Positions 20,314 to 59,824 of a stretch of DNA of 64,000 nucleotides are shown here, piece by piece. The stretch lies in sequence record PZ445551.1; one strand, written 5' to 3'. Position 1 is the stretch's first letter; the number at the start of each line of letters is the position of its first letter. The translations under genes and the position numbers were made by a program. A model generated the notes under the pieces. It did not search any database, was not told the DNA's origin, and saw only the letters and a list, made by a program, of their open reading frames with translations. This stretch comes from a phage.

Positions 20314-21126
20314 TTACTTAGTCAAATGATCTTCTATCATTTTTATGAAAGCAGGATTGCTAAAAGCATCTGCTGCCTTTTCTCTATAAACAAAGACTCC
20401 TCTATCTTCGTAAAGAAGAGTTTCTTCGTAATTAATTCCTGGGTTAACAACAATCATTTTTATACCCATAGTAAGTGCAGGGAATAATTCCCAATTAAAA
20501 TTGATAACTTGGTTTGAACATCCTACTACAACAACCAAATCTTGCATGGTCAAAGTATCAAACAAGTGAGCCATATCTGCATACAAAGGTGCAGCCTCAC
20601 CAAAAAATACAACATTAGGCTTCACCCAGTTATAATCATCTATGTTTATACTATTGTAACCAATGTCTACCAGTGTTTTGTAATCTCCAGGGTGCATACG
20701 GTAAACTACTTCAGGAAGATACCCGTGCACGTGAATAACAGAATCCCTGTCCACACCTGCTCGCTCTAGTAGATCATCAACGTTTGTTGTCAAGTTTACT
20801 ACTTGGTTAGGATATTCCTTAAACCACTTTGCTATTTGAATATGTGCAGCATTAGGTTGTACATCTTTAAGCTCAACACGTCTTTTGTTATAAAATTCGT
20901 GTGTTTTGGCATACAAGTCCATACCGTTCTCGTCTACACCACCGACCACTGGAAGATCTGGAGATGTTCTCACACGATAACCTGCTTGGAAAGCTCCAAT
21001 ATCGCAGACCTCTTCTAAATCATATTCTTCCCACAAGGCACGACCACTATCTGTGTCTGTTCGGAATGTTCGAATCCCACTGTCTGCACTTAAACCTGCG
21101 CCACTAACAAAAATTACTCTTCGCAT
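20314..21126 (-). CDS. Sir2-family (sirtuin-like) NAD+-dependent protein, no zinc-ribbon cysteines
   Basis: N-terminal GAGLSADSGIRTFR matches sirtuin GAGxSxxxGIPxFR; VIHVHG catalytic His; 270 aa. Confidence 0.7.
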   Translation of the reverse strand: MRRVIFVSGAGLSADSGIRTFRTDTDSGRALWEEYDLEEVCDIGAFQAGYRVRTSPDLPVVGGVDENGMDLYAKTHEFYNKRRVELKDVQPNAAHIQIAKWFKEYPNQVVNLTTNVDDLLERAGVDRDSVIHVHGYLPEVVYRMHPGDYKTLVDIGYNSINIDDYNWVKPNVVFFGEAAPLYADMAHLFDTLTMQDLVVVVGCSNQVINFNWELFPALTMGIKMIVVNPGINYEETLLYEDRGVFVYREKAADAFSNPAFIKMIEDHLTK

Positions 21127-22455: not shown

Positions 22456-23445
22456 CTATTCCTCCATACATTTAAGAATATGTGCAATGACAGGTATAGT
22501 CCAACCGTTACCTAACATCTTATATGCTTGTGTGTTACTACTCACTTTAAAGTAATCATCTGGAACACCTTGTAAGCGGCAACACTCTTTAACCGTTAAC
22601 TTTCTATAATGTACGCCTTCACTCAATTTTTCAAAGGCATCTAGATATCTTCCAGGTGGAATGTAGGCTAATAGTACGTCTTTAGGCACAGTCGTGAGGC
22701 AACGAGTTTTTTCACTGTCCTGAACTTCCAAACAATGTACCAAACGATCAGTTTTAGATGTACTACGTTTGCCATTTTCATTAATTCTACGCCCATATAT
22801 TGCTGCCGGATAAAAAACCAGTTGTCTGCGACTCTTTTCAAAATACTGTTCTATATTACCACCTTTGGCATAATTTGCATCTATGCAATAAGCCTTATCT
22901 CTGTCTACAATACTATCATCTTCAATTATATCTTGCAACACTTCATTGGTAATCTCCCAGGGTTTTATTTCCCAGTTGCACCAGTATAAACGTTGTCTAT
23001 TCTGTGCCGTGAAATCTGCGGAGTTAATGAATACGGGATCAACACCTAAGTAACTTGTGATCACGTTTTCCCACTCCATTTTCATCTTAACGTTTTCAAG
23101 CATGAACTTAACATTAGGATTAAACTTTTTAATATGTTCAAGAATTTCAACATATTCGAAGAATAGCTTAGATCGTGGATCTTGAAAGTTCAAACCCTTA
23201 CCAGAAGAAGAGAAGCCTTGACACGGACTACCACCTAACAAAAGATCAATTTCTCCCCACGGGATATCCCATTCTCTCCATTTTGTAACATCACCTAACT
23301 GAATAATATCTGGAAAATTTGCTTGGCTTTCAGCTACGGCAAATTTGTCTAATTCTGAAGCGTAATATGTATCTACTTCAATACCTGCACTTTTTAGCGC
23401 AAGCATTCCTCCTGACATACCATCAAAAAGACTTAAAACTTTCAT
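22456..23445 (-). CDS. dcm: DNA (cytosine-5)-methyltransferase
   Basis: motif I LFDGMSGG, motif IV GGSPCQGFS, motif VI ENV; 329 aa. Confidence 0.85.
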   Translation of the reverse strand: MKVLSLFDGMSGGMLALKSAGIEVDTYYASELDKFAVAESQANFPDIIQLGDVTKWREWDIPWGEIDLLLGGSPCQGFSSSGKGLNFQDPRSKLFFEYVEILEHIKKFNPNVKFMLENVKMKMEWENVITSYLGVDPVFINSADFTAQNRQRLYWCNWEIKPWEITNEVLQDIIEDDSIVDRDKAYCIDANYAKGGNIEQYFEKSRRQLVFYPAAIYGRRINENGKRSTSKTDRLVHCLEVQDSEKTRCLTTVPKDVLLAYIPPGRYLDAFEKLSEGVHYRKLTVKECCRLQGVPDDYFKVSSNTQAYKMLGNGWTIPVIAHILKCMEE

Positions 23446-26688: not shown

Positions 26689-27261
26689 TTAATGTGTTAA
26701 TGAAACTGCGTAACTAAACACAGGTTCAGATATTACATCGGCTACAGTAATAAAAACGTCTTCGTCTTGAGTTGTTTCTACACGACATACAGTTACACCA
26801 TTCACCACGAATTCAACGCAATGTGGAATATCTTCACAAACGAAGGTAGTGTAAGTAACACCCAAAGCATCATACAAAGATTTAACAGTGTTTGCAAGTG
26901 CCGCAGTTTCTTCTTTTTCTGAGACAATGAATGCTGTAACAACAAGATTGTTTGCATAGTTTAGACTGTCCTCTATAGCCAATGATTTACAAGGTAGTAA
27001 TGCAAAATATTTACCTGGTTTAATCAGACCTGCTTCCCATTGATTCAAAATTGCTTGGGATGGTTTAGTAATATAAAACAGATTTTCACTTGGGTTATCA
27101 ATATTACTTCTGGCGATACAACGTGAAGGATTATTAATATCAAACACATGATCAAAATCTACACAAACTGGTAAACTGAAAGGTGTGAATTTTTTACCTA
27201 ATAATCCTACTGCTGACAATATGTTTGCTGTGCTTATCTTCCCGTTAAAAGCTAAACGCAT
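26689..27261 (-). CDS. hypothetical protein (190 aa)
   Basis: track ORF. Confidence 0.5.
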   Translation of the reverse strand: MRLAFNGKISTANILSAVGLLGKKFTPFSLPVCVDFDHVFDINNPSRCIARSNIDNPSENLFYITKPSQAILNQWEAGLIKPGKYFALLPCKSLAIEDSLNYANNLVVTAFIVSEKEETAALANTVKSLYDALGVTYTTFVCEDIPHCVEFVVNGVTVCRVETTQDEDVFITVADVISEPVFSYAVSLTH

Positions 27262-27485: not shown

Positions 27486-28148
27486 TTATTTAATATTCAA
27501 TTTTGCACAAAGACGTTGTACCGCTTTGGCATCGAACAAACTCCCACGAATAGTTCTCTTTCCTGATTCATTCAGATGTTTTGCAATCGTCATATATGGC
27601 GTTTTACAAGCTCTGTATGCAACTAAAGAATCTTTTAAAGAAAGCGCAAACTCTTTTGAGCGTTTTGCTTCTTCCGTTTTCGTATAATCTGTTCTTTTGT
27701 ATTTAGGGTTTGCTGCACCAAGAAGCGTTCCCTTCGCTTTTGCTACTTTAAGGCTCTTCTTAACACGATCAGATATTGCACGAGCCTCTTCTTCTGCCAG
27801 AACTGCTAAAATATTTATTATCATATTTTCAGCGGAGGGCATAGTTGCTATTCGTACATTAATCATCTCTAACAAGGTTGCAACAGAAGCTGTGTTACGT
27901 CCAAGACGGTCAACCTTAGCAACAACAAGTGTAGCACCTGTTTCTTTGCAAAGATTAACAGCTTTTACAAGCTCTCTACGTTGCTTCCAATCGCCTTTAC
28001 CCGAATAAAACTCTGCAAAGCTACCTACAATAGTATAATTTTCTTGTGAATCCAGGAAGCGTTGGATATCTGCTTCCTGTGATTCTATACCATACTGGTT
28101 GCCTTGTTGTTTCTTCTTAGAAAGTCGATGATACAGTACAAACTTCAT
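27486..28148 (-). CDS. serine recombinase (resolvase/invertase family)
   Basis: RLSKKKQ catalytic-Ser region, VVAKVDRLGRNTASVATLLE, AVLAEEEARAISDRVKKSLKVAKAKG, C-terminal HTH. Confidence 0.8.
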   Translation of the reverse strand: MKFVLYHRLSKKKQQGNQYGIESQEADIQRFLDSQENYTIVGSFAEFYSGKGDWKQRRELVKAVNLCKETGATLVVAKVDRLGRNTASVATLLEMINVRIATMPSAENMIINILAVLAEEEARAISDRVKKSLKVAKAKGTLLGAANPKYKRTDYTKTEEAKRSKEFALSLKDSLVAYRACKTPYMTIAKHLNESGKRTIRGSLFDAKAVQRLCAKLNIK

Positions 28149-28421: not shown

Positions 28422-28660
28422 TCGTTGTTACGAGCATTTTCAAGAACCTTGACAACTTCTGCATACTCTACAGCTAAACCAGCACACACTTCAGCTTGTT
28501 TTGCAATTGCTTGTTTAAAGAACATAGCGATTGCAACACTCTGTGTTGTGTGAATGTTATCTGCTTTAGTTGATACGTGAAGATCAAAATCTTCTTCATC
28601 AAAGGTGAGTTCCATAGTAACAATAAATTTCTCGGTCATAAAAATGCTCCTCTTAAACAA
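28409..28660 (-). CDS. hypothetical protein (83 aa)
   Basis: track ORF. Confidence 0.45.
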   Translation of the reverse strand: MFKRSIFMTEKFIVTMELTFDEEDFDLHVSTKADNIHTTQSVAIAMFFKQAIAKQAEVCAGLAVEYAEVVKVLENARNNDWEE

Positions 28661-29162
28661 AATAGAAAGGTTGAGTTAAACCCAGCCTGTTTTTTGGGTC
28701 GTAGACGTACCAAGCATATGCTGTCTTATCAGTACCACCTGCAACAAAAGATGGTCGTTCAGAAAGAACAATCAAATTTGTTGGTGGATTCTGTTTATGG
28801 AATTCCCTTCGTTTAATAGACTCTAGGAAACCAAGACGCAACAAGTATATGCAAACGTCTGCTTCTTTTAAGCTCTTTTGCAAGAACTCAAGTGCAAGTT
28901 TGAATGGGGGATTTGTGATTATAATATCCGGCTTAGTATGCCATTCGTGGTTAAAATAATCTTTCCCTTCTTCTAACTCACAATATTCTGATCCTTCTGG
29001 AAAATGTTGATAAATTGCAGCAGCAGCGCCTTTACACGGTTCTGCAAAAATAAAACCTTCTTCTTTAAGGTTATTAAAATCTATTACACTAAATAATGCA
29101 TTTATACATTTTTGTGGAGTAGGATAGTAATCAGTTGGTGGACGATCATACTTATTTGCCAC
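28653..29162 (-). CDS. putative N6-adenine methyltransferase (phage Dam-like, NPPF motif)
   Basis: DYYPTP and IIITNPPF motifs; 169 aa. Confidence 0.55.
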   Translation of the reverse strand: MANKYDRPPTDYYPTPQKCINALFSVIDFNNLKEEGFIFAEPCKGAAAAIYQHFPEGSEYCELEEGKDYFNHEWHTKPDIIITNPPFKLALEFLQKSLKEADVCIYLLRLGFLESIKRREFHKQNPPTNLIVLSERPSFVAGGTDKTAYAWYVYDPKNRLGLTQPFYFV

Positions 29163-29620: not shown

Positions 29621-30274
29621 TTAATTATCAGAGGACACTTTATCAAGTTTTTCAGAGACTGTCAATACTTTTTCTTGTGATTCTTTCATTTCTGCTAAAA
29701 TACTTTCAGCTTCATCACTATCAGGATCACCAGTCAACAGCATACTAATTAGTTGCTCCTTGCTGAAGTTCAGAATATCTTCCGCTGTTAGCTCCAGTTG
29801 TTCTTCGATCTCTTCAATAAAAGTTTCACCGCCGGAAAAAGCATCTCGTAGTTTTGCAACTTCCATCGCTTCTTCTGGAGTTGCCCCTGCATCTAAAGCT
29901 GCTAAAGCAAAATCTGCCCCACTACCAACAGCATAATAATCTTCAGTTAAAGGATATGCTCGCGTGGGATTATTACCCTCGTGCATATAAATTTTACCGT
30001 CTGGGTGAACAACCAATGCCACAAATTCTTCATCTTCTTTATCAGGATCTGACTGGATCACCAAACCTGGGATTGTCTCTTGTGCTGCTTGGCATTGTAA
30101 GTTTTGTTCGAACCAAGAAAAGAAAGTCAGGATAGAAGACAGACGTCCTGCACCACCAACAAGGTAGTCCCCAATTTTACGCACTTTCTTGAAATTTAAA
30201 GTGTCTACACGACTACCTACTGTTACTTTACCGTCAGACAGAATTTTGTTACGTGTTGCAATAATTGTTGTCAT
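29621..30274 (-). CDS. HslV-like Ntn-hydrolase (proteasome beta-type) protease subunit
   Basis: MTTIIATRN (Thr2), KVRKIGD, GGAG, AVGSGADFALAAL resemble HslV; acidic C-terminal extension. Confidence 0.6.
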   Translation of the reverse strand: MTTIIATRNKILSDGKVTVGSRVDTLNFKKVRKIGDYLVGGAGRLSSILTFFSWFEQNLQCQAAQETIPGLVIQSDPDKEDEEFVALVVHPDGKIYMHEGNNPTRAYPLTEDYYAVGSGADFALAALDAGATPEEAMEVAKLRDAFSGGETFIEEIEEQLELTAEDILNFSKEQLISMLLTGDPDSDEAESILAEMKESQEKVLTVSEKLDKVSSDN

Positions 30275-31554: not shown

Positions 31555-31571
31555 GTTTGCACTCCTTATAA

Positions 31572-31590
31572 AAGGGGCTTTCGCCCCTTT
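31572..31590 (-). terminator. rho-independent terminator after lysozyme gene
   Basis: GGGGC-gaaa-GCCCC then TTTT on minus strand. Confidence 0.6.
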
Positions 31591-32253: not shown

Positions 32254-32520
32254 TTACTCCGCAATCTGAGCCATGAATTCACGTAGTTCAGAAAAACCTC
32301 CTACGTGGGTTAGCTGTTCACCATCTTCCACAAAAATCTGAGGAAATGTGCGTGGTAGAACACCTGTTTTCTCTAAAACCAGATTCTGAATCTGATCTAA
32401 AGAATAGTCTTCATCTAAGGTAAGGTATTTAAAATCCTGTTCACGCTGTTCTAGTAGAATCTTAGCGTTAGTGCAGAAAGGACAATTTGGTTTACCGTAG
32501 ATAATAAAATTCATTTTCAC
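32254..32520 (-). CDS. glutaredoxin/thioredoxin-like (NrdC/NrdH-type)
   Basis: CPFC active-site motif near N-terminus; 88 aa. Confidence 0.75.
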   Translation of the reverse strand: MKMNFIIYGKPNCPFCTNAKILLEQREQDFKYLTLDEDYSLDQIQNLVLEKTGVLPRTFPQIFVEDGEQLTHVGGFSELREFMAQIAE

Positions 32521-33347
32521 TCCTTGTTTAAAAGTATAGTTAAAGTTCTTACAATACCGCTATCAACACTTCGCGGATTTAAAGTAGGATCTGTTTTTAA
32601 ATAAGATGTTGCTGGTCTGACTGCTTTTGAATTATAGGTTGAAGCAGATACAGGATTAACTGTAACAGATAAATCTATAACAAGAAATATCTTTCGTGCA
32701 AAATCATACCAAGAAATATAATCTGCACCTGCATAGTGTACAATTTTACTATTTACACCATCTTTTACAAGTTTAAAAATTGTTTCTGCAAGATCAGGTG
32801 CATAAGTAGGACATGATAAATGATCACATACTACATTAAATTCTTTTTGACCACCGTTGTAGCGTTCCAACATAGTTTTCAAAAAGTTATGTCCAAATTC
32901 ACTATAAACAGAAGCTGTTCGGATAATAAGTGCTGTAGGACAAACTGTTTGTACTAAAGTTTCACCTAATTGTTTACTATAACCGTAGGTGTTCAAGGGG
33001 TTTGTTTTACTATCTTCTGTACCAGCAACATGCCCATCAAAAACATAGTCTGTTGAAATATGTACAAACTGTATCAGTAAATCATTACATGCTTTGGCAA
33101 TGTTTGTTGCACCGTATGCATTAACATTTATACAGGTGTTAACATCTTCTTCAGCTTTATCTACTGCCGTGTAAGCCGCACAATTCACAACAACATCAGG
33201 CACATGCTGTACAAGACTATTCATAACATCTTTAAAGTTGGTAATGTCTACATCACTTGCTTCAATCAAAATAACATCTTCGGGCGCAACTTTTGCCAAA
33301 GACTGTCCTAATTGACCTTTTGAACCAAAGACTAAAAATTTTGTCAA
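32517..33347 (-). CDS. rmlD: dTDP-4-dehydrorhamnose reductase
   Basis: N-terminal GxxGQLG Rossmann motif; position after rmlC. Confidence 0.75.
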   Translation of the reverse strand: MTKFLVFGSKGQLGQSLAKVAPEDVILIEASDVDITNFKDVMNSLVQHVPDVVVNCAAYTAVDKAEEDVNTCINVNAYGATNIAKACNDLLIQFVHISTDYVFDGHVAGTEDSKTNPLNTYGYSKQLGETLVQTVCPTALIIRTASVYSEFGHNFLKTMLERYNGGQKEFNVVCDHLSCPTYAPDLAETIFKLVKDGVNSKIVHYAGADYISWYDFARKIFLVIDLSVTVNPVSASTYNSKAVRPATSYLKTDPTLNPRSVDSGIVRTLTILLNKE

Positions 33348-33898
33348 AATATGATCTCCTTTAGTGTTTTGGCTTCCTGATCTTTTTGTGACAAGATAGG
33401 TTTAAAATTAATATCATTAAAGATTAAATCAAAACCCCAATCTATATTGATATCTGGATCATTCCACGCAAGACTACACTCTGAAGTCGGATCGTAATAT
33501 TCTGTACATTTGTATTCAAAATCAGCAATATCACTAATCACAACAAAGCCATGAGCGAAACCAGGAGGAATCCAAAATTGTGTTTTATTCTTTTCAGATA
33601 AGAGAACACCTACCCATTCTCCAAATGTTGGACTACCAACCCTAATATCTACAGCAACATCATAAACTTCACCACGAACACAGCGTACTAACTTCCCTTG
33701 TGGGTTTTTCTTTTGAAAATGAAGCCCACGTAGAACTCCTCGGATAGAACGTGAATGGTTATCTTGGACAAAGTTTTGTTTACCTATGTATTGATCATAT
33801 AAAGCCTGATTAAAACTTTCTAAGAAAAAGCCACGTTCATCTCCATAAACGTCAGGTTGAATGATCAACAAGTCTTCGATTTTTGTTGCTTGAATCAT
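33344..33898 (-). CDS. rmlC: dTDP-4-dehydrorhamnose 3,5-epimerase
   Basis: cupin-type RGLHFQ region; 184 aa. Confidence 0.8.
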   Translation of the reverse strand: MIQATKIEDLLIIQPDVYGDERGFFLESFNQALYDQYIGKQNFVQDNHSRSIRGVLRGLHFQKKNPQGKLVRCVRGEVYDVAVDIRVGSPTFGEWVGVLLSEKNKTQFWIPPGFAHGFVVISDIADFEYKCTEYYDPTSECSLAWNDPDINIDWGFDLIFNDINFKPILSQKDQEAKTLKEIIF

Positions 33899-33910
33899 TT
33901 AATTCCCCTT

Positions 33911-34780
33911 TTATTTTAATTTAAGTAAATACTTACCGTAGTCTGTTTTACTTAAAACCTCTCCAGAACTTTTTACAGAGTCTAAAGTAATCCATTCATT
34001 TTTAAAAGCAATCTCTTCCAGGCATGCAACCTTCATACCTTGTTGCTTCTCTATTGCATGAACAAATTGAGATGCTTCCATAAGACTTTCATGTGTTCCT
34101 GTATCCAGCCAAGTGAAACCTCTTCCTAGCTTACAGACACGTAAAGCCTTTTCTTTCCAGTACATCTCATTTATATCTGTGATCTCTAACTCCCCTCTAG
34201 CAGAAGGCTTAACGCTTTTAGCTTTCTGTATAACAGAATTATCGTAAAAGTACAAGCCTGTAATTGCATAGTTGCTTTTTGGTGCTTTTGGTTTTTCTTC
34301 AATACTTACCACTGTACCTTCAGAATCAAACTCAACAACACCAAATCTTTCAGGATCATTTACGTGATACCCAAAAATATTAGCTCCACCATTCTTTTCA
34401 ATATGTTCTTTAGCAGAATCTAAAATGCTACCAAAACTCTGACCAAAGAATAAATTATCACCTAGCACAAGTGCTACAGAATCTTCACCAATAAAGTTCT
34501 CACCAATAATAAACGCTTCTGCTAAACCTTTTGGGCTATCCTGTACTGCATACTGTAGGGAAATACCAAAAGAAGAACCGTCACCTAGAAGATTTACAAA
34601 ATTAATTTGATCTTCTGGTGTTGTAATTATTAGTATTTCCCTAATTCCAGAAAGCATTAGGACAGAGAGTGGATAATAAATCATAGGTTTATCGTAAATT
34701 GGTAATAGTTGTTTACTAACCCCTTTAGTAACTGGGTAAAGTCTTGTTCCACTACCACCTGCTAAGATAATACCTTTCAT
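33911..34780 (-). CDS. rmlA: glucose-1-phosphate thymidylyltransferase
   Basis: [19 protein letters not shown]-terminal signature. Confidence 0.85.
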
Positions 34781-34788
34781 ACTCCTCC

Positions 34789-35778
34789 TTAAACTTTATT
34801 TTCCCACCACTCTTTGTTATCTACATACCAATCAATGGTTGAATAAAGTTTTTCTTCAAATGTGCCTTTAGCTTTCCACCCTAATTCCTTTTCAATCTTA
34901 TAAGGATTCACTTCATATCTTAGATCATGCCCAGGCCTATCTGTAACCATCTCAATGAGGCTACAAGCATCTGTTTCAGATGGATATACCGCATCCATAT
35001 AATCACAAATCATATAGATTACATCAATATTAGTTCTAGGGTTTCTGCTCCCAATATTATATGTTTCTCCAGATTTGCCTTTAGTTACTACTAGGTGTAA
35101 TGCTTCTGCGTGATCGTCAACGTATAGCCAGTCTCTTACTTGAAGACCATTACCATAAACAGGGATTGGTTTATTCATTAAGATATTTGTTATCGTCTTA
35201 GGTATTAGTTTTTCTGGATGATGATATGCTCCAAAATTATTTGAACAATTTGTTATAACTGTCGGAATACCATAAGTACGATGCCACGCTCTTACCAAAT
35301 GATCGCTTGCAGCTTTAGATGCAGCATATGGACTACTTGGTTTATAAGGATTCTGTTCTGTAAACGGATAATCCCCTTCTTCCAGATCACCATACACTTC
35401 ATCTGTTGAAATATGATGGAACATTTTAAGATTTGATTTATCTCCCATTAAACGAACAGCTTCTAGAAGATTAAATGTCCCAACAATATTTGAATTTATA
35501 AAAACACTCGGTGATGCTATTGAATTATCTACGTGACTCTCTGCTGCAAGATGCATTATATAATCTGGATTAACATCTGCCACAATCTTAGCAGTTAACT
35601 GCGCATTTGTCAAGTCAACACGACAAAACTTTACATTAGGTGTTTCTGATAAATTCCTAGGGTCTGAAGCGTAACCCCATTTATCTATAACGTAAATATC
35701 ATTCTTAGTATTTTTAGCTAGGAAACGAACTACCGCACTTCCAATAAAGCCTAAACCACCTGTTACTAAGTATTTCAT
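34789..35778 (-). CDS. rmlB: dTDP-glucose 4,6-dehydratase
   Basis: TGGLGFIGS Rossmann motif, SDR YxxxK region. Confidence 0.85.
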
Positions 35779-35972
35779 TTAGTCTCCTTCCAATTATTCC
35801 CTTCAGTAAAAATAATACCTTCATAAAACAACCATCTGGAACCTTTTTCAACAGGAACAGGAAGCTCTTCTTCAGTAAAGTTATAAACCTCTCTAGCATC
35901 TTCTAAAAGTGATGCAAATGTTTTTGGACTTACTGTTACGCGAGGAGCATTGATCAGTTGATCTAGCATCAT
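35775..35972 (-). CDS. hypothetical protein (65 aa)
   Basis: track ORF 35775..36065 trimmed to MMLDQ after strong RBS aaggagg. Confidence 0.45.
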   Translation of the reverse strand: MMLDQLINAPRVTVSPKTFASLLEDAREVYNFTEEELPVPVEKGSRWLFYEGIIFTEGNNWKETK

Positions 35973-35985
35973 TCTACTATCCTCC

Positions 35986-36312
35986 TTACCAAACGTGTTG
36001 AGAAATAATAGTTTCCGTTTCAATGTTATATTTTTCAAGAAGTTGTGCATAGGCTTCTTTTGCATTTTTATTTAGTTGCTCAAGATCTACAGCTACACTT
36101 CCTTCGCCACCTTCTAAATAAATGCCATATATGCAATAAGATTCATCAGCATCATAGAAAGGAGAGATACGACTTAAATCAAGACCTTCTTGTAAGAACC
36201 AGTTAAAGTCTCCATCAAATTCTTCTTCAATTCTAGGATCTTCTCCTACAGCTTCTTCCCATTTATTAAAAGGTGCGCCCTGTAACATACGCCATTCAAT
36301 ATTAGTCCCCAT
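35986..36312 (-). CDS. hypothetical acidic protein (108 aa)
   Basis: track ORF. Confidence 0.5.
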   Translation of the reverse strand: MGTNIEWRMLQGAPFNKWEEAVGEDPRIEEEFDGDFNWFLQEGLDLSRISPFYDADESYCIYGIYLEGGEGSVAVDLEQLNKNAKEAYAQLLEKYNIETETIISQHVW

Positions 36313-36442
36313 TATCTTCCTCTTCTTCTTCAGTATGAACGAAACCTAAACCGTTACAATTCCAACAAGGAATAAATTGTTCCATACTAACAATAAAATT
36401 CCCAGTACCACCGCAGATAGGACAAATACTTACATCATCCAT
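36302..36442 (-). CDS. small zinc-ribbon protein (46 aa), not in track
   Basis: ATG 36442 after RBS gaggag; CPICGG ... CWNCNG. Confidence 0.35.
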   Translation of the reverse strand: MDDVSICPICGGTGNFIVSMEQFIPCWNCNGLGFVHTEEEEEDNGD

Positions 36443-36444
36443 TA

Positions 36445-36651
36445 TTAAAGCTCCTCAATCTTTTCTAACATCTGTTTTAACTCATTCTCTGTTAACAGAA
36501 TTTCTGTGATACCATCATAAGTTTCTACCATCAGAGTAAAACATTTCTCTCCATCTGAACACACAAAAGCACCACCTTCATCTTCTGTTAAGTCAGAATT
36601 AATATCTACATCAACAAAATCAATCATCTTTTTCTCCTTTGATAATTTCAA
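36445..36651 (-). CDS. hypothetical acidic protein (68 aa)
   Basis: track ORF; start uncertain. Confidence 0.4.
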   Translation of the reverse strand: MKLSKEKKMIDFVDVDINSDLTEDEGGAFVCSDGEKCFTLMVETYDGITEILLTENELKQMLEKIEEL

Positions 36652-36838
36652 ACTTGGCTACACCATTAACTATAATGTGACCGCAAGACATAACTCCTAG
36701 CCAATGATCACCATTCTTTTTTAAACGTTTACCGTAAACATCACAGAAACCATTCTGTAATTCGGAAGCCTCATAAGAGGCTCCCTTTTCGAAAACGTCT
36801 TTGAAGTCAGAAATTAATCCAACACAAAGTAGTTTCAT
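36620..36838 (-). CDS. hypothetical protein (72 aa)
   Basis: track ORF. Confidence 0.45.
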   Translation of the reverse strand: MKLLCVGLISDFKDVFEKGASYEASELQNGFCDVYGKRLKKNGDHWLGVMSCGHIIVNGVAKFEIIKGEKDD

Positions 36839-37923
36839 TAAAAGTCTAACTCCTCGTCATCACTTACATCTTTATTTGCTGAATTCAGTTTGTAAGCTGT
36901 AATTTGGATCTCCTGTGCTGCTGCTTGAATTTGATCTGGATTTAACCAAACATCCATCCAAGGCAGTGGACTTTTCTTCGGTGCACGGAATTTGTGTTTC
37001 ATTTTCAGTCTGCGATAGATAGGCGCAGCATTGAAGTAAACCCAAAGTTTGAACAACTCTGCGTTACCACCAACGATAATCCTTCCTTCACTAAACAGAT
37101 AGTCACACCAATCTTCCTCTTGTCCAACTACCGTGTCAAGAATTTCTGTCAGAACGTCGATATTATCTTCGTATACTTTTCTCCAGACAGGATCTTTCAG
37201 CAGTGCATCAATAATAGCATAATCCATTTTAACGTGCAATAGTTCATCCAACATAATTTTTTGAATGAGTTTAGCTGCACCTACAAACAGTTGCTGCTCT
37301 GCTAAGGCAAATGTTGCAGCAAAAGATGATATGAATTGAATGCCTTCCAGACCGATAAGTGCAATCATTCCTTTCAGAATCAGTAGACGAAGGTTATCAT
37401 CCTTCTCAATCAGACCTAGAGCATATTTATGCCCTGCCTCTGCCAGATCACTCATTATCTCTTCAACTATACCCATCCTCTGGAAGATTCTTTCGTTCTC
37501 CATAATCTGATCGATAACTTCATTTGGATTAGGGATACACTGACGAATAATTTCAGAATATGTCAAAGCGTGTAAAACTTCCATTTCTGATTGCTTCATC
37601 ATCATTGCACATGCTTCGTTGTTGCTTAAAAATGGTGCAAACAAAGTGATGATTGATTTAGCAAGTGAATCATTTTCCCACTGGAAAGATAGGTTTTTGA
37701 TCATAACATCATAGTTGCTTTTAGAACAAGCTACGAAATCTTTTCGTGTCTGATCTAAGTTTACTTCGTTTTCATCCCAGTCTTGCTGTTTTTGTAGTTT
37801 GTACAGACGATGCATTTCTGGGTATGTTACATTAATAGAATCAAAAATACCTAACTGTTCTCCCAAAAACACAGGGTAGAAACCTTCTTTGTAAGTGTCG
37901 TTGTATAAGTTAATTGCTGCCAT
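36838..37923 (-). CDS. nrdB: ribonucleotide reductase class Ia beta subunit
   Basis: ferritin-like di-iron protein of the right size (361 aa), adjacent to nrdA. Confidence 0.85.
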   Translation of the reverse strand: MAAINLYNDTYKEGFYPVFLGEQLGIFDSINVTYPEMHRLYKLQKQQDWDENEVNLDQTRKDFVACSKSNYDVMIKNLSFQWENDSLAKSIITLFAPFLSNNEACAMMMKQSEMEVLHALTYSEIIRQCIPNPNEVIDQIMENERIFQRMGIVEEIMSDLAEAGHKYALGLIEKDDNLRLLILKGMIALIGLEGIQFISSFAATFALAEQQLFVGAAKLIQKIMLDELLHVKMDYAIIDALLKDPVWRKVYEDNIDVLTEILDTVVGQEEDWCDYLFSEGRIIVGGNAELFKLWVYFNAAPIYRRLKMKHKFRAPKKSPLPWMDVWLNPDQIQAAAQEIQITAYKLNSANKDVSDDEELDF

Positions 37924-37967: not shown

Positions 37968-38624
37968 TTAGCCTTGGAACACTGTTTTTGTTTCTGCCAA
38001 GTGATAGTATAAATCTGCCTTGTTTATAAGAGTGTTGTATACCTCTTGACAAAAATGTTCTTCCTCTTTGTAACGATTCGCTGTTTCCCTGATCGACTTG
38101 GCTTTATCTTTTAACCAAGCGAAGTGTGCCTCTTCCTCTGTAGCGAAATAGCCTAAATGCTTGCTTTTGCTTCCAGAAGTTTTGGCATAAATCTTGCCAT
38201 CTTTCCTAATATGCGCTCCGAGTAAGTATTTCCTTTTATGTCTCTTGGCATAACTTAAAAGTGTATTGATATAGGGAGGAACAAACCTACAATATTCAGG
38301 ACAATAGACAGTATTTCCCTCAAGAACAAGATCTTTGTCTAAAACAAAACCTTCGACATTGTGTTCTTGATACCAATTATCAAAATTTGAAAAAGTAAAC
38401 CAAGCATCACAGACGGTAACATCTTTATACCCTGGTCTAATATCTTCCATCTTATATGCACGATGAAACATGCCTTTCCAAGCTGCATAGGAAGGGTCTA
38501 TGAATGTGTTAACCCTTTTCCCGTTGACAACGCCACCTTCCCACAATCTACGTTCAACATCCACAATCAAGGGGATTTCTCCCCTCTCTGTGAGAACAGT
38601 AACTTTACGTTTACCCTTCTTCAC
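37968..38624 (-). CDS. putative homing endonuclease with AP2-like DNA-binding domain
   Basis: HLGYFATEEEAHFAW AP2-like motif; free-standing between nrdA and nrdB. Confidence 0.55.
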   Translation of the reverse strand: MKKGKRKVTVLTERGEIPLIVDVERRLWEGGVVNGKRVNTFIDPSYAAWKGMFHRAYKMEDIRPGYKDVTVCDAWFTFSNFDNWYQEHNVEGFVLDKDLVLEGNTVYCPEYCRFVPPYINTLLSYAKRHKRKYLLGAHIRKDGKIYAKTSGSKSKHLGYFATEEEAHFAWLKDKAKSIRETANRYKEEEHFCQEVYNTLINKADLYYHLAETKTVFQG

Positions 38625-38632: not shown

Positions 38633-40897
38633 CTACATTTTACAGGCGCTACACCCCTCGTCTTCAGAATCTTCTTGAGCGAGTGAGGATGCCGATTTTG
38701 TTCTGCTATTTAGATAGTACAAAGATTTACCACCAAGTTTTGCAAACTGAAGAATATATTGCATTTCTGATTTAATGGATAAACGACCACCTTCCATCTT
38801 AGAGTAGTCAATCCACTTATCACATGATGCACCTTGATCTAAGAATTTAGTCAACAGGCCATATGCTTCAGCCATATCTTTATCTGGCGTATCCCAAGCC
38901 GATTGGTAAATATCTTTTAGTTTATCGTAATCTGGCACAATAAACAGAACATTACCTTTTTGGCTTTGTTTATAAACTATAGTATCACGTACAGGATACA
39001 CAGAGTTAGTCGTATTACTTACAAGACTACTGGACTCATTTGGAGCAATAGCTGCTAATACGCTATTTCGGATACCACCTTGTGCAATGATATCTTGTCG
39101 TAAACCTTCCCAATCCATTTTAAGTTTAAAATTGCCAATATCGTCTACAGCTTTAGCGTAGGTGTCAATAGGCAACCATCCTTCAGGCCATTTGGTTTTA
39201 TGCATCCATTCTGCATTACCTTTCTCTTTTGCCAAACGAAGAGAAGCTCTTGCTAACCAATAATAATGTCTTTCTGCTAATTCGTGAATTAGTTTTTTGC
39301 CGTAAGGATCTGAATAAGTAACAAAATTACTTGCCAGATAATGTGCAAGGTTTGTAATACCTACACCGATAGACCTACGTGCTTTAGCAGTGATTTCGTT
39401 ATGTTTAAACGGATACTGCATTGTTTCAATAACATTATCAATAGTCAGAACGGTATAATATGCAACATCTTCATATTCTTCTGGTGTAACACGACCAGCT
39501 ACAATAGAAGACAGGAAGCATAATGCCAATTCTTGATCTTCTGTATTCTCACCTGTGAAAAGATCAGTCATATTGTGAAATGCTTTCGTAGGTAAGAAAA
39601 TTTCTTGGCACAAGTTTGACTGGTAAATAACATCCTTAAACGGAGTATGTTTATTAGCATTATCCGCAAAGAACATATAAATACGTCCTGTCTCTGCTCT
39701 TTGTGTAATAATTTCTGCCAGAAGATCTCGTGCTTTTACAAACTTCTTCTTAATTCGTTTGCGACTAACTTTTTCATATACTTCTTCAAACTCTTCCTCG
39801 CTTTTATAAAGCGCCTCATAGAGTTCTGGTGCTTCGTCATAACTGACTAGCATCCAATCTTTACCTTTTGCTGCACGGCGCAGGAAAGCATTGTTTACTA
39901 CAATAGAGTAATCAAGTTTATCTACTCGTTTTTCACTAACAGTAGTTGGGTTTTTCAAACGTACCAGATCTTCAAAATCAGGTTCTAGTATTGTAAACGT
40001 TACTGTTGCACTTCCACCACGGCTTGCTTGTTTTGATGCTCCAACACTTGTTTCCATCCATTTCAGATATGGTAAAAGACCACCGTGAACGATACGGTTG
40101 TTCTTAACACCTTGTCCTGTAGCACGGGTTTGGAGGTTAACACCAATACCTGCATTATTCAATGTATATTCATGAGCAAGATAGTTAGCAATTGCTAAAG
40201 ATTCTGCTGTATCATCTGCTCTAAACAGGCAACAAGAAGCACTACCTTTAATCTTAGTACGCAAAGTTGTTAAATAAGGTGATGGTAAGTTAATCTTAAG
40301 ATCACTTACGTAGGTATATAGACGTTTAATGTCTTCTACTCTGCGATCTTTTGGTTGAATTTCCATTACCTTCATTGCTACACCAATGAATAAAAACTGT
40401 GGTGATTCAAAAACAACATCATTGATCGCATCTTTCACAAGATACTTATCAACCATCTGGCGCAGTACGGAATAACCATAAGTTAGGTTTTTATCGTGAT
40501 TGACAATTTTACCAATCTCAATAATTTCTTCTTCTGTATAATCCATTTTTCCCCAATAGCCTTTACTTACAGCCATATTGTAGAAATCCAGGAGGGAGGG
40601 GATATTATGATATCCCCCATGAGCCTGTTTATAAATCATACCAAGAAGTAACCGACCTGCCATATCACTATATGCCTGATCTTTCTTATCAATACATGCT
40701 GCTATCATAGCTTTATGTAAATCACGAGTAGGCACACCGTCGTAACAACGTTTAACAGCTTCAAGTTCAATTTCAGACCAATTTAATTTACCAGCAGCAA
40801 ACTCTGACCATTTACGAAGTTTTTCTGGATTAAATTCTTCTTTCTTGCCGTTTGTTTTTGTTACATAACGGATAGATTTGCTTAGATACTGAGTCAC
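38633..40897 (-). CDS. nrdA: ribonucleotide reductase class Ia alpha subunit
   Basis: 754 aa; conserved RNR large-subunit core with catalytic Cys and C-terminal CSAC. Confidence 0.9.
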   Translation of the reverse strand: MTQYLSKSIRYVTKTNGKKEEFNPEKLRKWSEFAAGKLNWSEIELEAVKRCYDGVPTRDLHKAMIAACIDKKDQAYSDMAGRLLLGMIYKQAHGGYHNIPSLLDFYNMAVSKGYWGKMDYTEEEIIEIGKIVNHDKNLTYGYSVLRQMVDKYLVKDAINDVVFESPQFLFIGVAMKVMEIQPKDRRVEDIKRLYTYVSDLKINLPSPYLTTLRTKIKGSASCCLFRADDTAESLAIANYLAHEYTLNNAGIGVNLQTRATGQGVKNNRIVHGGLLPYLKWMETSVGASKQASRGGSATVTFTILEPDFEDLVRLKNPTTVSEKRVDKLDYSIVVNNAFLRRAAKGKDWMLVSYDEAPELYEALYKSEEEFEEVYEKVSRKRIKKKFVKARDLLAEIITQRAETGRIYMFFADNANKHTPFKDVIYQSNLCQEIFLPTKAFHNMTDLFTGENTEDQELALCFLSSIVAGRVTPEEYEDVAYYTVLTIDNVIETMQYPFKHNEITAKARRSIGVGITNLAHYLASNFVTYSDPYGKKLIHELAERHYYWLARASLRLAKEKGNAEWMHKTKWPEGWLPIDTYAKAVDDIGNFKLKMDWEGLRQDIIAQGGIRNSVLAAIAPNESSSLVSNTTNSVYPVRDTIVYKQSQKGNVLFIVPDYDKLKDIYQSAWDTPDKDMAEAYGLLTKFLDQGASCDKWIDYSKMEGGRLSIKSEMQYILQFAKLGGKSLYYLNSRTKSASSLAQEDSEDEGCSACKM

Positions 40898-41677: not shown

Positions 41678-42649
41678 TCACCATTTTGTATGGTTAGTCA
41701 AAAGTTGACGATGTTGAATCCAACCACAGAAGTTTCCACTCCACAAACGATGTTTACGATCCATATGTGTAATACCTTCTTCCCAAGAGGAAGGGAACGG
41801 AGGAATATTAATACCACCTTTCTGTTGTTTTAATCCTGACAAATCCATTTCTTTCATTGGCGTTGCCTGGTGTTCAAACGGAGATGCATGTACCTTTTGT
41901 CCAGACAGCAAACGAGAATAGATATCCAATGCTTTATCTTTAGTATCATTCAACTTACGATAACTTACCTGAGCGCAACAAGAAGCTGAAATAGCTTTTG
42001 CTTCATCTTCTGTCAACATTTTCTCGTTGGAGAAGGTTTCACCCAAGAAATAACGGATCATACCAGTTTCTGGATCTCGATCACGATTAACGTAAGGTGT
42101 ATGCCACTCCCCTGGGAAAAGAAGATATGGTTCAGAAGATTCATACAGTTTTTTAATTTCTTTAGCAAGAGCCTCAATAGTAGGATCTGCATCAGCATCT
42201 ACGCGCAACCACAAGAAGTTTTCTAATTCTGTAGTGGTTACTACAGTCTTCATACGCTGGAATGGTTCTAGTAGTCGGTTTGCAACCTGTTTATGATAAC
42301 CAGCAAGGGCAAACTCTTCTGCAAAACGTGCAGCACTTAGTGCAGCCAAGTCCCACCATTCTTTTGCAGTGTAACCTGCATCAATCAGGGCATCGTGATC
42401 TGTGCCTTTATCTTGCATACCTGGTTGGTTAGCACCAAAACGATAAGGACGTGCTGGAGATTGCCGTACCATTTCAATCAGGGTTTTAACAGGGATAGCT
42501 CGACTTGATGCGGCATTACGAGAAAACAAACGATGCGTCATCAACTCAGAGTGAATGATTCGAGGATATTCAAGTTCAAAGGTAACAATATCCTTACCTT
42601 CAGATGTTTGAGAGTGTGCAATAATTTTTGCTGAAATAGAATCTGTCAT
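41678..42649 (-). CDS. thyX: flavin-dependent thymidylate synthase
   Basis: ThyX signature HRLFSRNAASSRAIP (RHR...S motif). Confidence 0.85.
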   Translation of the reverse strand: MTDSISAKIIAHSQTSEGKDIVTFELEYPRIIHSELMTHRLFSRNAASSRAIPVKTLIEMVRQSPARPYRFGANQPGMQDKGTDHDALIDAGYTAKEWWDLAALSAARFAEEFALAGYHKQVANRLLEPFQRMKTVVTTTELENFLWLRVDADADPTIEALAKEIKKLYESSEPYLLFPGEWHTPYVNRDRDPETGMIRYFLGETFSNEKMLTEDEAKAISASCCAQVSYRKLNDTKDKALDIYSRLLSGQKVHASPFEHQATPMKEMDLSGLKQQKGGINIPPFPSSWEEGITHMDRKHRLWSGNFCGWIQHRQLLTNHTKW

Positions 42650-42658: not shown

Positions 42659-43249
42659 TTAAGGTAGTAAAATACTTTCAATTTCTTCCCACTGATTATC
42701 TAAACCAGTGATAATTACATTAGGAAGTTTCTTTAACTCTTCCAAATATGGATCTTCGTAAATAGTGTTGAAATATATTTTCAACGTTTCATCTGGAAAC
42801 AGGACAAGATTTTCAGCCCTATCATCAATAGTTACGTCGCAAGGCAATAAGTATTTTTCTTTTGTTGCGAAAAAACCATTACCAGATGTTCTACTAAAAT
42901 CCACTTTATCTAAAGACCGTGTTACGTGTCTATATTTAGAACTAAGGTGTCCACCCTTAGTGTGGCTTGCTATAGATATATTAGCTCCATTTGCAATTAT
43001 ACGATGAACAACATCTGTACTATTAGGTACTACTCCCATAGTATCATATAGATGTTGGTTATCCCAAAAAGAGTAAGGATCAACACCAAATTGCTTTTTA
43101 AAATCAGGGAAATATTTCGTAATATCATAATGCACAGTTTTATGTGTATTATCAAATTTGATATTAGATCTACTTACCGCATTTAACCAATTTAACCACT
43201 CTATATCCGCAGGAGCTATTACTAAATCCCAATCACATACTAGACGCAT
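42659..43249 (-). CDS. HAD-family 5'(3')-deoxyribonucleotidase-like protein
   Basis: track ORF trimmed to MRLVCDWDLV after RBS aggag; DxDxV-like motif I and IDDR motif. Confidence 0.45.
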   Translation of the reverse strand: MRLVCDWDLVIAPADIEWLNWLNAVSRSNIKFDNTHKTVHYDITKYFPDFKKQFGVDPYSFWDNQHLYDTMGVVPNSTDVVHRIIANGANISIASHTKGGHLSSKYRHVTRSLDKVDFSRTSGNGFFATKEKYLLPCDVTIDDRAENLVLFPDETLKIYFNTIYEDPYLEELKKLPNVIITGLDNQWEEIESILLP

Positions 43250-43796
43250 TATTTCTCCTGTTATAACATTTTCTACACATTGTTTCGTAAATGTCTTCTC
43301 CCCCAATAACAATCTGTTCTTTAGAGTCGATAAGTCTAGCATTGAAAATAGCTTTTCTTCCACATTTACAAATGCTTTTCAATTCTGTAATTGAATCTGC
43401 TATGGCTAATAACCGTTCAGAACCTTCAAACAATTCTGTAGCAAAATCTGTTTTAAGTCCATAACAGAATACAGGAATATCGTAATTATCTACCACATCT
43501 CCAAGAATGTCAACCATATCTTTAGTTAGGAATTGTGATTCGTCCACAAATACTGCATCTACTGGATTTTCTTTAAGCTGTGTATAAATTTCCAGCATAT
43601 CTTCTTTTGTTTTAACTGGTTTTGCTTCCTCTTTAATACCTATCCTAGAAGCAATAGCACTACCAGATCTGGTATCTAAAGCTGAAGTTAAAAGAAGAAC
43701 TTTCATATTTCTTTCTTTATAGTTCCAAGCTGTTTGTAGAAGATGTGTGCTTTTACCACTGTTCATTGGACTATATCGGAAATAAAGTTTAGCCAT
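43233..43796 (-). CDS. tdk: thymidine kinase
   Basis: Walker A SPMNSGKST, CxxC zinc pairs in C-terminus. Confidence 0.85.
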   Translation of the reverse strand: MAKLYFRYSPMNSGKSTHLLQTAWNYKERNMKVLLLTSALDTRSGSAIASRIGIKEEAKPVKTKEDMLEIYTQLKENPVDAVFVDESQFLTKDMVDILGDVVDNYDIPVFCYGLKTDFATELFEGSERLLAIADSITELKSICKCGRKAIFNARLIDSKEQIVIGGEDIYETMCRKCYNRRNNASSM

Positions 43797-56170: not shown

Positions 56171-57064
56171 ATGAAAGTTAGTATTCTACATGGTGTTGAC
56201 TGTTATGTTACTGATGTAGACGTTAAAGTCTTTACATTCTCTGGTGGAGAACAACATGTTCAACTAGATACGAATCTATCAGGTTTCAATCATGCTACAG
56301 ACAGAATCTTACTCTCTTTAGAAGTAAGATCTGCTAAAGACTTGATGACTTTGGTTATGACTAAGAATGCATTGGACAATATGCTATATCATAAACCATA
56401 TTGTGTTGATTTACTCATGCTGTATGTGCCATATGCACGACAAGACAGAGTGTGTGAACCTGGGGAAGCATTCGGAGTTAAAGCATTTGCTTCTATAATT
56501 AATTCATTAAATTTCTCACGTGTTATCGTTGCTGATCCACATAGTGATGTTACTCCAGCAGTGTTTGACAGACTCTGTGTAATACCTCAAGAAGAGATTG
56601 CTTACGAAACTTTAAAATGGAAGTTACGTATGGAGAATTTTGCTCTTGTTAGCCCTGATGGTGGTGCTCTTAAGAAAATATTTAAATTATCTAAGAAAAT
56701 GTCTTTAGATGTGTTCTGTGCAGAGAAGGTTAGAGATACCGCAACAGGTGCTATTGTTCGTACAGACATTTCTGTACAGGATTTCAATAAGCGTAACCTG
56801 ATGATCGTAGATGATATCTGTGATGGTGGTAGAACTTTTATCGAATTGGCTAAAGTGCTACGTGCTCGTAACGCAGGTAAGATTGAGTTATATGTTACAC
56901 ACGGTATCTTTTCTAAAGGTCTTAAAGAGTTAAGTGAGCACTTTGACTGCATTCATTCTCTTAATGTGTGGGAAGATAACATCCAAGAAGATTCCGGTGT
57001 TCTTGTTAAGAATCAGTCAGATTTGCAACAACAAATTGTATCTCCATACGTGTGGAATTTTTAA
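56171..57064 (+). CDS. ribose-phosphate pyrophosphokinase (Prs) family protein; candidate ADP-ribose pyrophosphate synthetase (Adps-like)
   Basis: VPYARQDR, VSPDGGA, MIVDDICDGGRT, VTHGIFS motifs of the PRPP synthetase fold. Confidence 0.75.
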   Translation: MKVSILHGVDCYVTDVDVKVFTFSGGEQHVQLDTNLSGFNHATDRILLSLEVRSAKDLMTLVMTKNALDNMLYHKPYCVDLLMLYVPYARQDRVCEPGEAFGVKAFASIINSLNFSRVIVADPHSDVTPAVFDRLCVIPQEEIAYETLKWKLRMENFALVSPDGGALKKIFKLSKKMSLDVFCAEKVRDTATGAIVRTDISVQDFNKRNLMIVDDICDGGRTFIELAKVLRARNAGKIELYVTHGIFSKGLKELSEHFDCIHSLNVWEDNIQEDSGVLVKNQSDLQQQIVSPYVWNF

Positions 57065-57074
57065 ATAATAAGTG

Positions 57075-57103
57075 TTGACAACAGGGAGTATGCTTAGTAA
57101 GAT
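57075..57103 (+). promoter_or_regulatory. sigma70-like promoter TTGACA-17-TAAGAT overlapped by 7-bp inverted repeat GGGAGTA/TACTCCC
   Basis: read directly upstream of the NAMPT-like gene. Confidence 0.5.
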
Positions 57104-57135
57104 ACTCCCACACTAACAAACAAGGAGACATAACT

Positions 57136-59692: not shown

Positions 59693-59723
59693 TTTAAAAG
59701 GAGGTGCTATGCATCTCCTATAT

Positions 59724-59809
59724 GCAAGTGTGGTGGAATTGGTGATACACATTGTGCTTAAAACGCAACGCTTAAATGCTTGAGGGTTCGAATCCCTCCA
59801 CTTGCACCA
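59724..59809 (+). tRNA. tRNA-Leu(TAA), type II
   Basis: acceptor GCAAGTG/CACTTGC, anticodon loop CTTAAAA, long variable arm, T-arm GAGGG-TTCGAAT-CCCTC. Confidence 0.75.
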
Positions 59810-59824
59810 ACACCTAAAAATATC

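Follow-up and report, generated by a model that had tools for sequence, protein, structure and literature searches.

Why should a strictly lytic coliphage make its own activated rhamnose, and on what is it spent? The question is raised by four consecutive genes, rmlB, rmlA, rmlC and rmlD, which together with a following glutaredoxin gene occupy positions 32,254–35,778 of a 64,000-nucleotide stretch of phage DNA (sequence record PZ445551.1; the whole stretch analysed is called the window here) and specify a route to deoxythymidine diphosphate (dTDP)-L-rhamnose. The window matches Escherichia phage VivaForever (PP925843) at 100% identity, as the reverse complement of VivaForever 30105–94104, and VivaForever is a phi92-like phage of the genus Justusliebigvirus, subfamily Stephanstirmvirinae; identity is 99% to phi92 itself and 95–99% to 55 further records. 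The gene set is ordinary and canonical, and it has been published: rml genes are annotated in GenBank from phAPEC8 (JX561091) onwards, the operon is kept in ~56 close relatives and at the same position in Phapecoctavirus, Olsen et al. described it as “peculiar” and proposed DNA glycosylation (2020, PMC7552041), and Maffei et al. attributed a “putative dTDP glycosylation machinery” to phi92-like phages (2021, PMC8594841). The published guess at its function, DNA glycosylation, conflicts with measured restriction sensitivity. The explanation that best accommodates the evidence given below, with a probability of roughly 45%, combines a functional-looking operon, glycosyltransferases of the phage's own and an acceptor on the virion.

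A complete dTDP-L-rhamnose route

Assignment of the four enzymes was based on curated NCBIfam equivalog cut-offs, all of which were exceeded (scores in Table 1), by a narrow margin in the case of RmlD, and Pfam was concordant. Each protein gave a full-length alignment to a known structure with retention of its characteristic motifs: RmlA to 1IIM (E value 4e-125; GGSGTRL, LGDN, EEKP and WLDTGT), RmlB to 1G1A (4e-117; GGxGFIG, STDEVYG, which includes TDE, and YxxxK), RmlC to 1DZR (6e-64; RGLHFQ, GKLVRC and YK-T-YY) and RmlD to 3SC6 (7e-44; GxxGQLG, STDYVF and YGxSK, here YGYSK), with a further match of RmlD to 1KBZ (4e-35). The C-terminal SxKD of RmlC falls beyond the stretch aligned to 1DZR but is invariant in the RmlC family alignment, as are H60, K69, Y129/Y135 and D173, the catalytic His, Lys, Tyr and Asp.

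The cassette is compact (8 nt between rmlB and rmlA, 12 nt between rmlA and rmlC, and a 4-nt overlap of rmlC and rmlD), and its guanine-cytosine content of 0.35–0.36 equals the phage background in the rest of the window. Comparison with the related phage EmilieFrey revealed 31 synonymous and 8 non-synonymous codon differences, an excess that indicates purifying selection on the cassette. Judged by its sequence, the phage encodes a complete and intact dTDP-L-rhamnose route in which all four enzymes are canonical, and in this respect a preliminary description of the window, which had placed the full route from glucose-1-phosphate to dTDP-rhamnose within a block of nucleotide-metabolism genes, is confirmed and is not explicable by chance. 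During infection RmlA–D would turn host glucose-1-phosphate and deoxythymidine triphosphate (dTTP) into dTDP-L-rhamnose, a step that is well supported; the supply of dTTP would be raised by the phage's ribonucleotide reductase (NrdAB), ThyX and thymidine kinase, and possession of its own pathway would free the phage from dependence on rhamnose synthesis by the host.

Four glycosyltransferases outside the window

A sugar donor calls attention to the enzymes that might use it, and the same preliminary description recognised no glycosyltransferase in the window and advised a search of the remaining genome. Within the window its statement stands: none is listed for this stretch in the Pharokka annotation of VivaForever or the manual BASEL annotation of EmilieFrey, and hidden Markov models (HMMs) of the phage's four own glycosyltransferase families found no match there, an exhaustive Pfam scan of the open reading frames (ORFs) of the window not being part of the analysis. 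For the genome as a whole it does not, as four consecutive glycosyltransferase genes are found ~68 kb from rml, with the genes for primase/helicase and DNA polymerase directly downstream of them (Table 1). They are labelled GT1–GT4 in reverse gene order; these are labels of this analysis, not CAZy families, and L-prefixed names likewise denote viral or prophage loci compared here.

GT1 and GT2, which are paralogs, matched Glyco_trans_1_2 (PF13524) weakly; CgeB, a protein of spore maturation, is a member of this family. When GT1, GT3 and GT4 were compared directly with PDB sequences, nothing significant was returned. The AlphaFold model of a 78%-identical GT3 homolog (predicted local distance difference test, pLDDT, 88) has a GT-A fold containing the invariant FDDD motif, and its structural neighbours, all weak, comprise viral GT-A proteins, the Listeria wall-teichoic-acid rhamnosyltransferase RmlT, TarP and polypeptide GalNAc-transferases. 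The model of GT2 (pLDDT 95) has a GT-B fold, and the structures closest to it are members of CAZy family GT4, namely GlgM, BshA, MshA, SdgB, PglA, TarM and Gtf3. None of the four proteins has a predicted transmembrane segment, no 19-residue stretch scoring above 1.21 on the Kyte-Doolittle scale.

The genes directly upstream of the glycosyltransferases form a tellurite-resistance-like cluster (TerC, TelA, a vWA-TerF-like protein and TerD) with a SleB-like cell-wall hydrolase, seen at VivaForever ~121000–129000, L089 1201–8941 and L130 1–7020.

Glycosyltransferases and rml occur together

Distribution across phages links the two gene sets. In the phage collection, RmlC and GT3 were found in nearly identical sets of records (RmlC/GT3: Escherichia 106/107, Klebsiella 8/9, ‘Campylobacter’ 5/5, Justusliebigvirus 3/3, Phapecoctavirus 3/3), the many rV5-like genomes were in neither list, and four IMG/VR contigs contained both genes. 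Three of the transferase genes, GT4-GT3-GT2, form a module specific to phages, and a second link comes from other lineages carrying it: a nucleoside diphosphate (NDP)-hexose 4,6-dehydratase gene lies between GT4 and GT3 in L088 (a divergent 135-kb relative), L104 and L119 (an Enterobacter prophage), and a homolog lies just upstream of the module in L127. This embedded dehydratase has TIGR01181 as its best match, at a sub-threshold 171 bits, and is 27–30% identical to RmlB. Its presence in or beside the module in one prophage and two divergent lineages of large phages indicates that the module recurrently travels with a 6-deoxyhexose supply of its own, and in the Stephanstirmvirinae that supply is plausibly the full rml operon.

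Use of the phage's dTDP-L-rhamnose by its four soluble glycosyltransferases is, on these grounds, well supported. The donor would be consumed by GT4, a small protein with DxD motifs, by GT3, of GT-A type with a DDD motif, and by the GT-B proteins GT1 and GT2.

Another viral lineage, L131 (9394–15346), shows a different arrangement: after a GT3-GT2 pair come genes for four unannotated proteins, 280–360 amino acids long, and a cytidylyltransferase-like gene (PF01467), a gene set that hints at another activated substrate for the module.

Virion proteins as the proposed acceptor

The acceptor is proposed to be the virion surface rather than DNA or host polysaccharide, with O-linked glycans on the major capsid protein and probably also on the tail sheath. 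Virion proteins are the best of the candidates, if tentatively so, at somewhat less than even odds. Homology provides one line of evidence: the GT3 family HMM matches gp102 of mycobacteriophage Bobi and gp94 of MooMoo at 83 bits, and both adjoin orthologs (88% and 50% identical) of Che8 gp110, a protein reported to be essential for capsid glycosylation (PMC12363180). Genomic position provides another. Homologs of GT4-GT3-GT2 (HMM E values 1e-73 to 1e-126) come immediately after the gene for the major capsid protein in a prophage of Pseudomonas alliivorans. In a prophage of Enterobacter huaxiensis the module is flanked by lysis genes on one side and terS/TerL/capsid on the other, and in E217-like contigs by holin and terminase.

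The structural proteins of phages with the module suggest how acceptors might be marked. In carriers of siphovirus type, -TT preceded by a Thr/Ser/Pro-rich stretch forms the C-terminus of the major capsid and tail-tube proteins (L119, L120, L111 and L108; Table 1) and is a candidate C-terminal glycosylation tag. Across the examined loci, 7/617 ORFs with 100 or more codons have this ending, and six of the -TT proteins were the capsid and tail-tube proteins of these four loci; in Che8, capsid and major tail proteins share the C-terminal dipeptide -GS. In both genera with rml, ...KLTTA closes the major capsid protein, compared with ...KATLKGGE in rV5, and the tail sheath of Justusliebigvirus ends ...NRTANSQNSNSSTVSS (last SNSSTVSS). 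In phi92-like phages such as EmilieFrey (Bas61) the capsid protein has 333 amino acids (last ELVVKLTTA) and the sheath 468. Across the EmilieFrey genome, Ser/Thr-rich C-termini were seen in the capsid, sheath and tape-measure proteins and in one uncharacterised protein, plus three mechanically called ORFs that lay outside the annotation check. A collagen-like tail fibre was also considered as a BclA-like acceptor and rejected, its Gly-X-Y stretches being short and not Thr-rich.

A number of observations weigh against this reading. With regard to the donor, rml and the module were adjacent in none of 24 module loci and none of 80 RmlC loci from IMG/VR, such that the evidence linking them is their co-occurrence together with the embedded 4,6-dehydratase of other lineages; and one module lineage, in which GT3 is 57–59% identical, is not among the best 80 RmlC matches. 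With regard to the acceptor, the fold matches of the GT3 and GT2 models are generic to GT-A and GT-B and name no acceptor, and Che8 has no GT3 homolog, its gp108–110 being without significant match to the GT3 HMM. The capsid protein of phi92-like phages ends in -TTA rather than -TT and is a weak tag, and the capsid protein of E217-like module carriers has no tag. A Ser/Thr-rich sheath tail as a tag common to both genera was rejected, as the Phapecoctavirus sheath ends ...NRTAN. The glycosyltransferases of the large myoviruses sit with replication genes and not with structural genes, and a search of the literature found no biochemical or mass-spectrometric evidence of a glycan on a phi92-like virion. 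A paper on phage JEP7, in which glycoprotein bands were absent, was set aside because it gives no taxonomy for that phage.

The proposal can be put more specifically, that phi92-like and phAPEC8-like phages coat their capsid, and probably their sheath, with O-glycans that contain rhamnose, and that the same module glycosylates -TT tags of capsid and tail-tube proteins in many temperate phages of Enterobacterales and Pseudomonas; in this fuller form it is a possibility about which we are more doubtful than confident. Were it true, no earlier system for glycosylating virions would be on record among phages of Gram-negative bacteria, and the finding would be relevant to phage therapy, these being broad-host-range phages in wide use and a glycan coat being expected to alter antibody recognition.

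Alternative acceptors

Three other destinations for the sugar were weighed. Transfer of rhamnose from its dTDP carrier to a modified DNA base, as T4 transfers glucose to hydroxymethylcytosine, would allow restriction to be evaded, and is the proposal of PMC7552041. It draws on the location of rml in a nucleotide-metabolism block, on the proximity of the glycosyltransferases to primase/helicase and DNA polymerase genes, and on weak matches of GT3 to PF20691, the family of TET-associated DNA glycosyltransferases (E 7e-5), and to phrog_842, the T-even beta-glucosyl-HMC alpha-glucosyltransferase, where HMC is hydroxymethylcytosine (E 5e-5); a Dcm-like C5-methyltransferase of the phage could, in principle, feed 5-methylcytosine to an oxidase. 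The PF20691 match is below threshold, though (23.3 bits against a cut-off of 27.5), and covers residues 16–75 only, the generic N-terminal Rossmann-DxD part, and the module is found in the head-gene blocks of small prophages. No hydroxymethylase or TET/JBP protein was found among the proteins tested near the C5-methyltransferase (no Pfam hit) or named in either genome annotation, a survey that took in part of the genome's ORFs, and the thymidylate synthase is ThyX and not of ThyA type, and so no candidate pyrimidine hydroxymethylase. Phi92-like phages of the BASEL collection were “exceptionally susceptible” to restriction-modification (PMC8594841), in tests with systems that do not probe CCWGG (Dcm) sites and would miss a sparse modification confined to them. 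Taken together, ThyX, the lack of a recognised hydroxymethylase or TET protein and the restriction sensitivity make DNA a very improbable acceptor.

The host envelope is a less remote candidate, but still an unlikely one. Rhamnose could be added to precursors of lipopolysaccharide (LPS), enterobacterial common antigen or capsule, or dTDP-4-keto-6-deoxyglucose could be diverted from them, with the benefit that superinfection is blocked or that progeny are kept from sticking to cell debris. Rhamnose is a typical O-antigen sugar, and the branch that leads to dTDP-Fuc4NAc for the common antigen starts from dTDP-4-keto-6-deoxyglucose. Structures resembling GT2 include the lipid- or polymer-directed GT4-family enzymes PglA, TarM and PimB, a gene for a SleB-like cell-wall hydrolase lies just upstream of the glycosyltransferases, and the receptors of these phages are enterobacterial common antigen and LPS core (PMC8594841). 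To set against this, the phage is strictly lytic, GT1–GT4 are without transmembrane segments, and neither annotation lists a flippase, a polymerase, a Gtr-type protein (GtrA/GtrB/GtrC) or an acetylase. The module is, moreover, phage-specific and in prophages stands within or beside the head-morphogenesis block, not at moron positions, and the homology of GT3 to mycobacteriophage transferases spans a wholly different type of envelope. A soluble or non-structural acceptor, whether a small molecule (such as a nucleoside-like product of the adjacent Ter/phosphoribosyltransferase/HAD gene set) or a non-virion protein (a host or phage regulatory protein), appears rather improbable, as does use of the pathway mainly as a sink for dTTP or glucose-1-phosphate. 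The glycosyltransferases do lie directly downstream of TerC/TelA/vWA-TerF/TerD in all Stephanstirmvirinae-like contigs inspected on that side, with phosphoribosyltransferase, HAD and macrodomain genes nearby, and structures resembling GT2 include BshA, MshA, GlgM and a tetrahydrobiopterin glucosyltransferase. In prophages, however, the module occurs without the Ter genes, there is no positive evidence for any one soluble acceptor, and in a mere sink RmlC, RmlD and four co-conserved transferases would be superfluous. Among the three acceptors offered by the preliminary description (DNA, virion proteins and host polysaccharide), then, virion proteins are the best supported, circumstantially, and DNA is the least likely, given ThyX and the restriction sensitivity.

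An old acquisition

The rml cassette has been in these phages for a long time. The gene order of phAPEC8 is that of the window (nrdA, nrdB, small ORFs, rmlB-A-C-D, the glutaredoxin gene, a small ORF, a T4-type lysozyme and phoH), and between Justusliebigvirus and Phapecoctavirus the Rml proteins are 63% (RmlB), 72% (RmlA), 63% (RmlC) and 55% (RmlD) identical, with flanking proteins at 84% (NrdB), 77% (lysozyme) and 76% (PhoH). The closest bacterial Rml proteins, in the best 80 GTDB genome loci ranked by RmlA, reached 55% (B), 69% (A), 61% (C) and 47% (D). Identity between the two phage genera exceeds that to any of these 80 bacterial loci, which speaks against recent transfer from a cellular donor; the comparison is most simply read as one old acquisition, in the ancestor of Justusliebigvirus and Phapecoctavirus. 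Of the best 80 RmlC-bearing IMG/VR loci, 45 have rmlB and rmlC and 24 have rmlC alone; the full set, or three of the four genes where the locus or match ends early, was confined among those 80 to Stephanstirmvirinae-like loci, marking the complete pathway as a hallmark of the subfamily.

A third lineage of Stephanstirmvirinae was encountered in Klebsiella/Citrobacter phages (FKP3, L091, and Tr1, L090) and in the metagenomic contigs L110/L134 and L112/L137. The contigs carry rml genes (RmlC 76–77% identical) and a lone GT3-like gene (35–39%) among small early ORFs, with no further module gene within 10 kb of it, and Tr1 and FKP3 show the lone GT3-like gene too.

Three records deposited as ‘Campylobacter phage’, A150 (MG065639), A110a (MG065689) and B15 (MG065650), are essentially phi92-like or phAPEC8-like coliphage genomes, with RmlC 100% identical and GT3 99% (A150, A110a) or 75% (B15) identical, and their host label is probably wrong.

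Nucleotide-metabolism neighbours and the glutaredoxin

The neighbours nrdA, nrdB, thyX and tdk named in the preliminary description were all recovered, by annotation and, for thyX, by PF02511 (Table 1). Its placing of a glutaredoxin after the rml genes was also correct as to position, but the glutaredoxin does not belong to the sugar pathway. In rV5 (Vequintavirinae), which lacks rml genes, thyX, nrdA and nrdB are followed after 4 nt by a glutaredoxin gene, and the rV5 glutaredoxin is 39% identical to that of the window (E 3e-19). The adjacency in rV5 indicates that the window glutaredoxin belongs with the reductase module, as the reductant of NrdAB, and that the rml cassette and five small ORFs were inserted between nrdB and the glutaredoxin gene. 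The glutaredoxin scored below every NCBIfam glutaredoxin equivalog cut-off, Grx1 and Grx3 included. Scanning of the small ORFs between nrdB and rmlB gave no Pfam or NCBIfam match for the two, of five, that were scanned; a 108-amino-acid ORF (35986–36312) has a putative counterpart, judged by size and position, in phAPEC8.

A scan of the minus strand from 37945 to 31590 detected no terminator-like site from nrdB until the hairpin that follows the endolysin gene. A promoter scan performed at chance level, with 39 sites found and 39.7 expected.

Table 1. Coordinates of the features discussed. Positions refer to the window unless another sequence or locus is named.
Feature	Position	Strand	Description
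rmlB	34789..35778	-	dTDP-glucose 4,6-dehydratase, 329 amino acids (aa); TIGR01181 444.1 bits, cut-off 365.1
rmlA	33911..34780	-	glucose-1-phosphate thymidylyltransferase, 289 aa; TIGR01207 473.7 bits, cut-off 360.65
rmlC	33344..33898	-	dTDP-4-dehydrorhamnose 3,5-epimerase, 184 aa; TIGR01221 259.8 bits, cut-off 155.75
rmlD	32517..33347	-	dTDP-4-dehydrorhamnose reductase, 276 aa, TTG start; TIGR01214 253.5 bits, cut-off 224.05
glutaredoxin	32254..32514 (GenBank ATG) or 32254..32520 (mechanical GTG)	-	86–88 aa, CPFC; PF00462 45.4, cut-off 22.9
hairpin	31571..31590	.	GC-rich, directly after the endolysin gene; first terminator-like element downstream of the nrdB-rml-grx-endolysin run
five small ORFs	35775..36838	-	between nrdB and rmlB; not at that position in rV5
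nrdB	36838..37923	-	beta subunit of class Ia ribonucleotide reductase; borders the rml insertion on its upstream side; 84% identical to phAPEC8 NrdB
nrdA	38633..40897	-	class Ia ribonucleotide reductase alpha; annotation
thyX	41678..42649	-	flavin-dependent thymidylate synthase; PF02511 37 bits, cut-off 24.8
tdk	43233..43796		thymidine kinase; annotation
GT4	within VivaForever 129644-132820		187 aa; phrog_14179; DxD motifs
GT3	within VivaForever 129644-132820		228 aa; phrog_2456; GT-A, FDDD motif
GT2, GT1	within VivaForever 129644-132820		~324 and ~314 aa; both phrog_7162, paralogs
L119 capsid	L119 13650-15608		ends ...GANTTT
L119 tail tube	L119 19960-20487		ends ...ANPTT
L120 capsid	L120 7863-8819		ends ...TSSSTT
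L120 tail tube	L120 13299-13961		ends ...SEPTT
L111 capsid	L111 10608-12548		ends ...ANPTT
L108 tail tube	L108 4559-5131		ends ...GEATT

Further genes of the window and its surroundings were recorded in passing. An HNH endonuclease ORF (37968–38624, minus strand) between nrdA and nrdB in VivaForever, where EmilieFrey and phAPEC8 have a short hypothetical ORF, looks like a homing endonuclease that moved into the reductase operon as a mobile element. Also on the minus strand are the Dcm-like C5-cytosine methyltransferase (22456–23445; PF00145, E 2e-43), a small N6-adenine methyltransferase (28653–29162), a DNA invertase/site-specific recombinase (27486–28148), this in a lytic phage, an HslV/proteasome-like peptidase (29621–30274) and a short protein similar to part of an aminoacyl-tRNA synthetase (26689–27261). 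An NAD+ salvage pair (phosphoribosyl pyrophosphate synthetase and nicotinamide phosphoribosyltransferase) and a Sir2-family protein are encoded at 56171–58884 (plus strand) and 20314–21126 (minus strand), and ~15 tRNA genes lie at ~59700–62300 (plus strand), one of them annotated ‘tRNA-OTHER’ (VivaForever 34162–34240).

Comparison with known systems

Bacterial RmlABCD, as encoded by rfb of Salmonella enterica and E. coli and rml of Pseudomonas aeruginosa, comprises the same four enzymes, and the catalytic residues are shared. B-A-C-D is the order seen most often in the best 80 bacterial loci, E. coli's own being B-D-A-C. The phage copy differs in belonging to a lytic phage, in lying within an operon for ribonucleotide reductase and not in a polysaccharide cluster, and in having no adjacent glycosyltransferase, flippase or polymerase; its RmlD is short (276 amino acids) and the most divergent of the four. 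The operons of phi92, phAPEC8 and other Stephanstirmvirinae agree with it in position and order, VivaForever adding the HNH endonuclease between nrdA and nrdB.

With the T-even phages and the TET/TET-associated glycosyltransferase systems the likeness consists of a phage transferase near DNA-metabolism genes and the weak GT-A similarity of GT3 to the TET-associated family, whereas the donor here would be a dTDP-sugar and not uridine diphosphate (UDP)-glucose, and no hydroxymethylase or TET protein was recognised. Mimivirus with its UDP-rhamnose pathway, Bacillus subtilis with sps and B. anthracis with rml-bclA are particle formers that possess their own 6-deoxyhexose pathway and glycosylate an outer protein layer. 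Enzymes and nucleotide carriers in these giant-virus and spore systems differ from those of the phage, and the parallel is one of analogy only.

The nearest parallel to the virion glycosylation proposed here is that of mycobacteriophages Che8, Corndog and Myrna (Freeman et al. 2023, as summarised in PMC12363180 and PMC11256854). Both systems have phage-encoded soluble glycosyltransferases, and a C-terminal dipeptide is shared by capsid and tail proteins in each, -TT in carriers of the module and -GS in Che8. The three transferases of Che8 are not detectably related to GT1–GT4 and, in contrast to phi92-like phages, the right ends of Che8, Bobi and MooMoo hold no nucleotide-sugar pathway genes. 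The proposed phi92-like system belongs to phages of a Gram-negative host. If its proposed role is correct, a phenomenon shown so far only for mycobacteriophages would be extended to these coliphages, and genome annotation would gain a recognisable module together with an acceptor tag.

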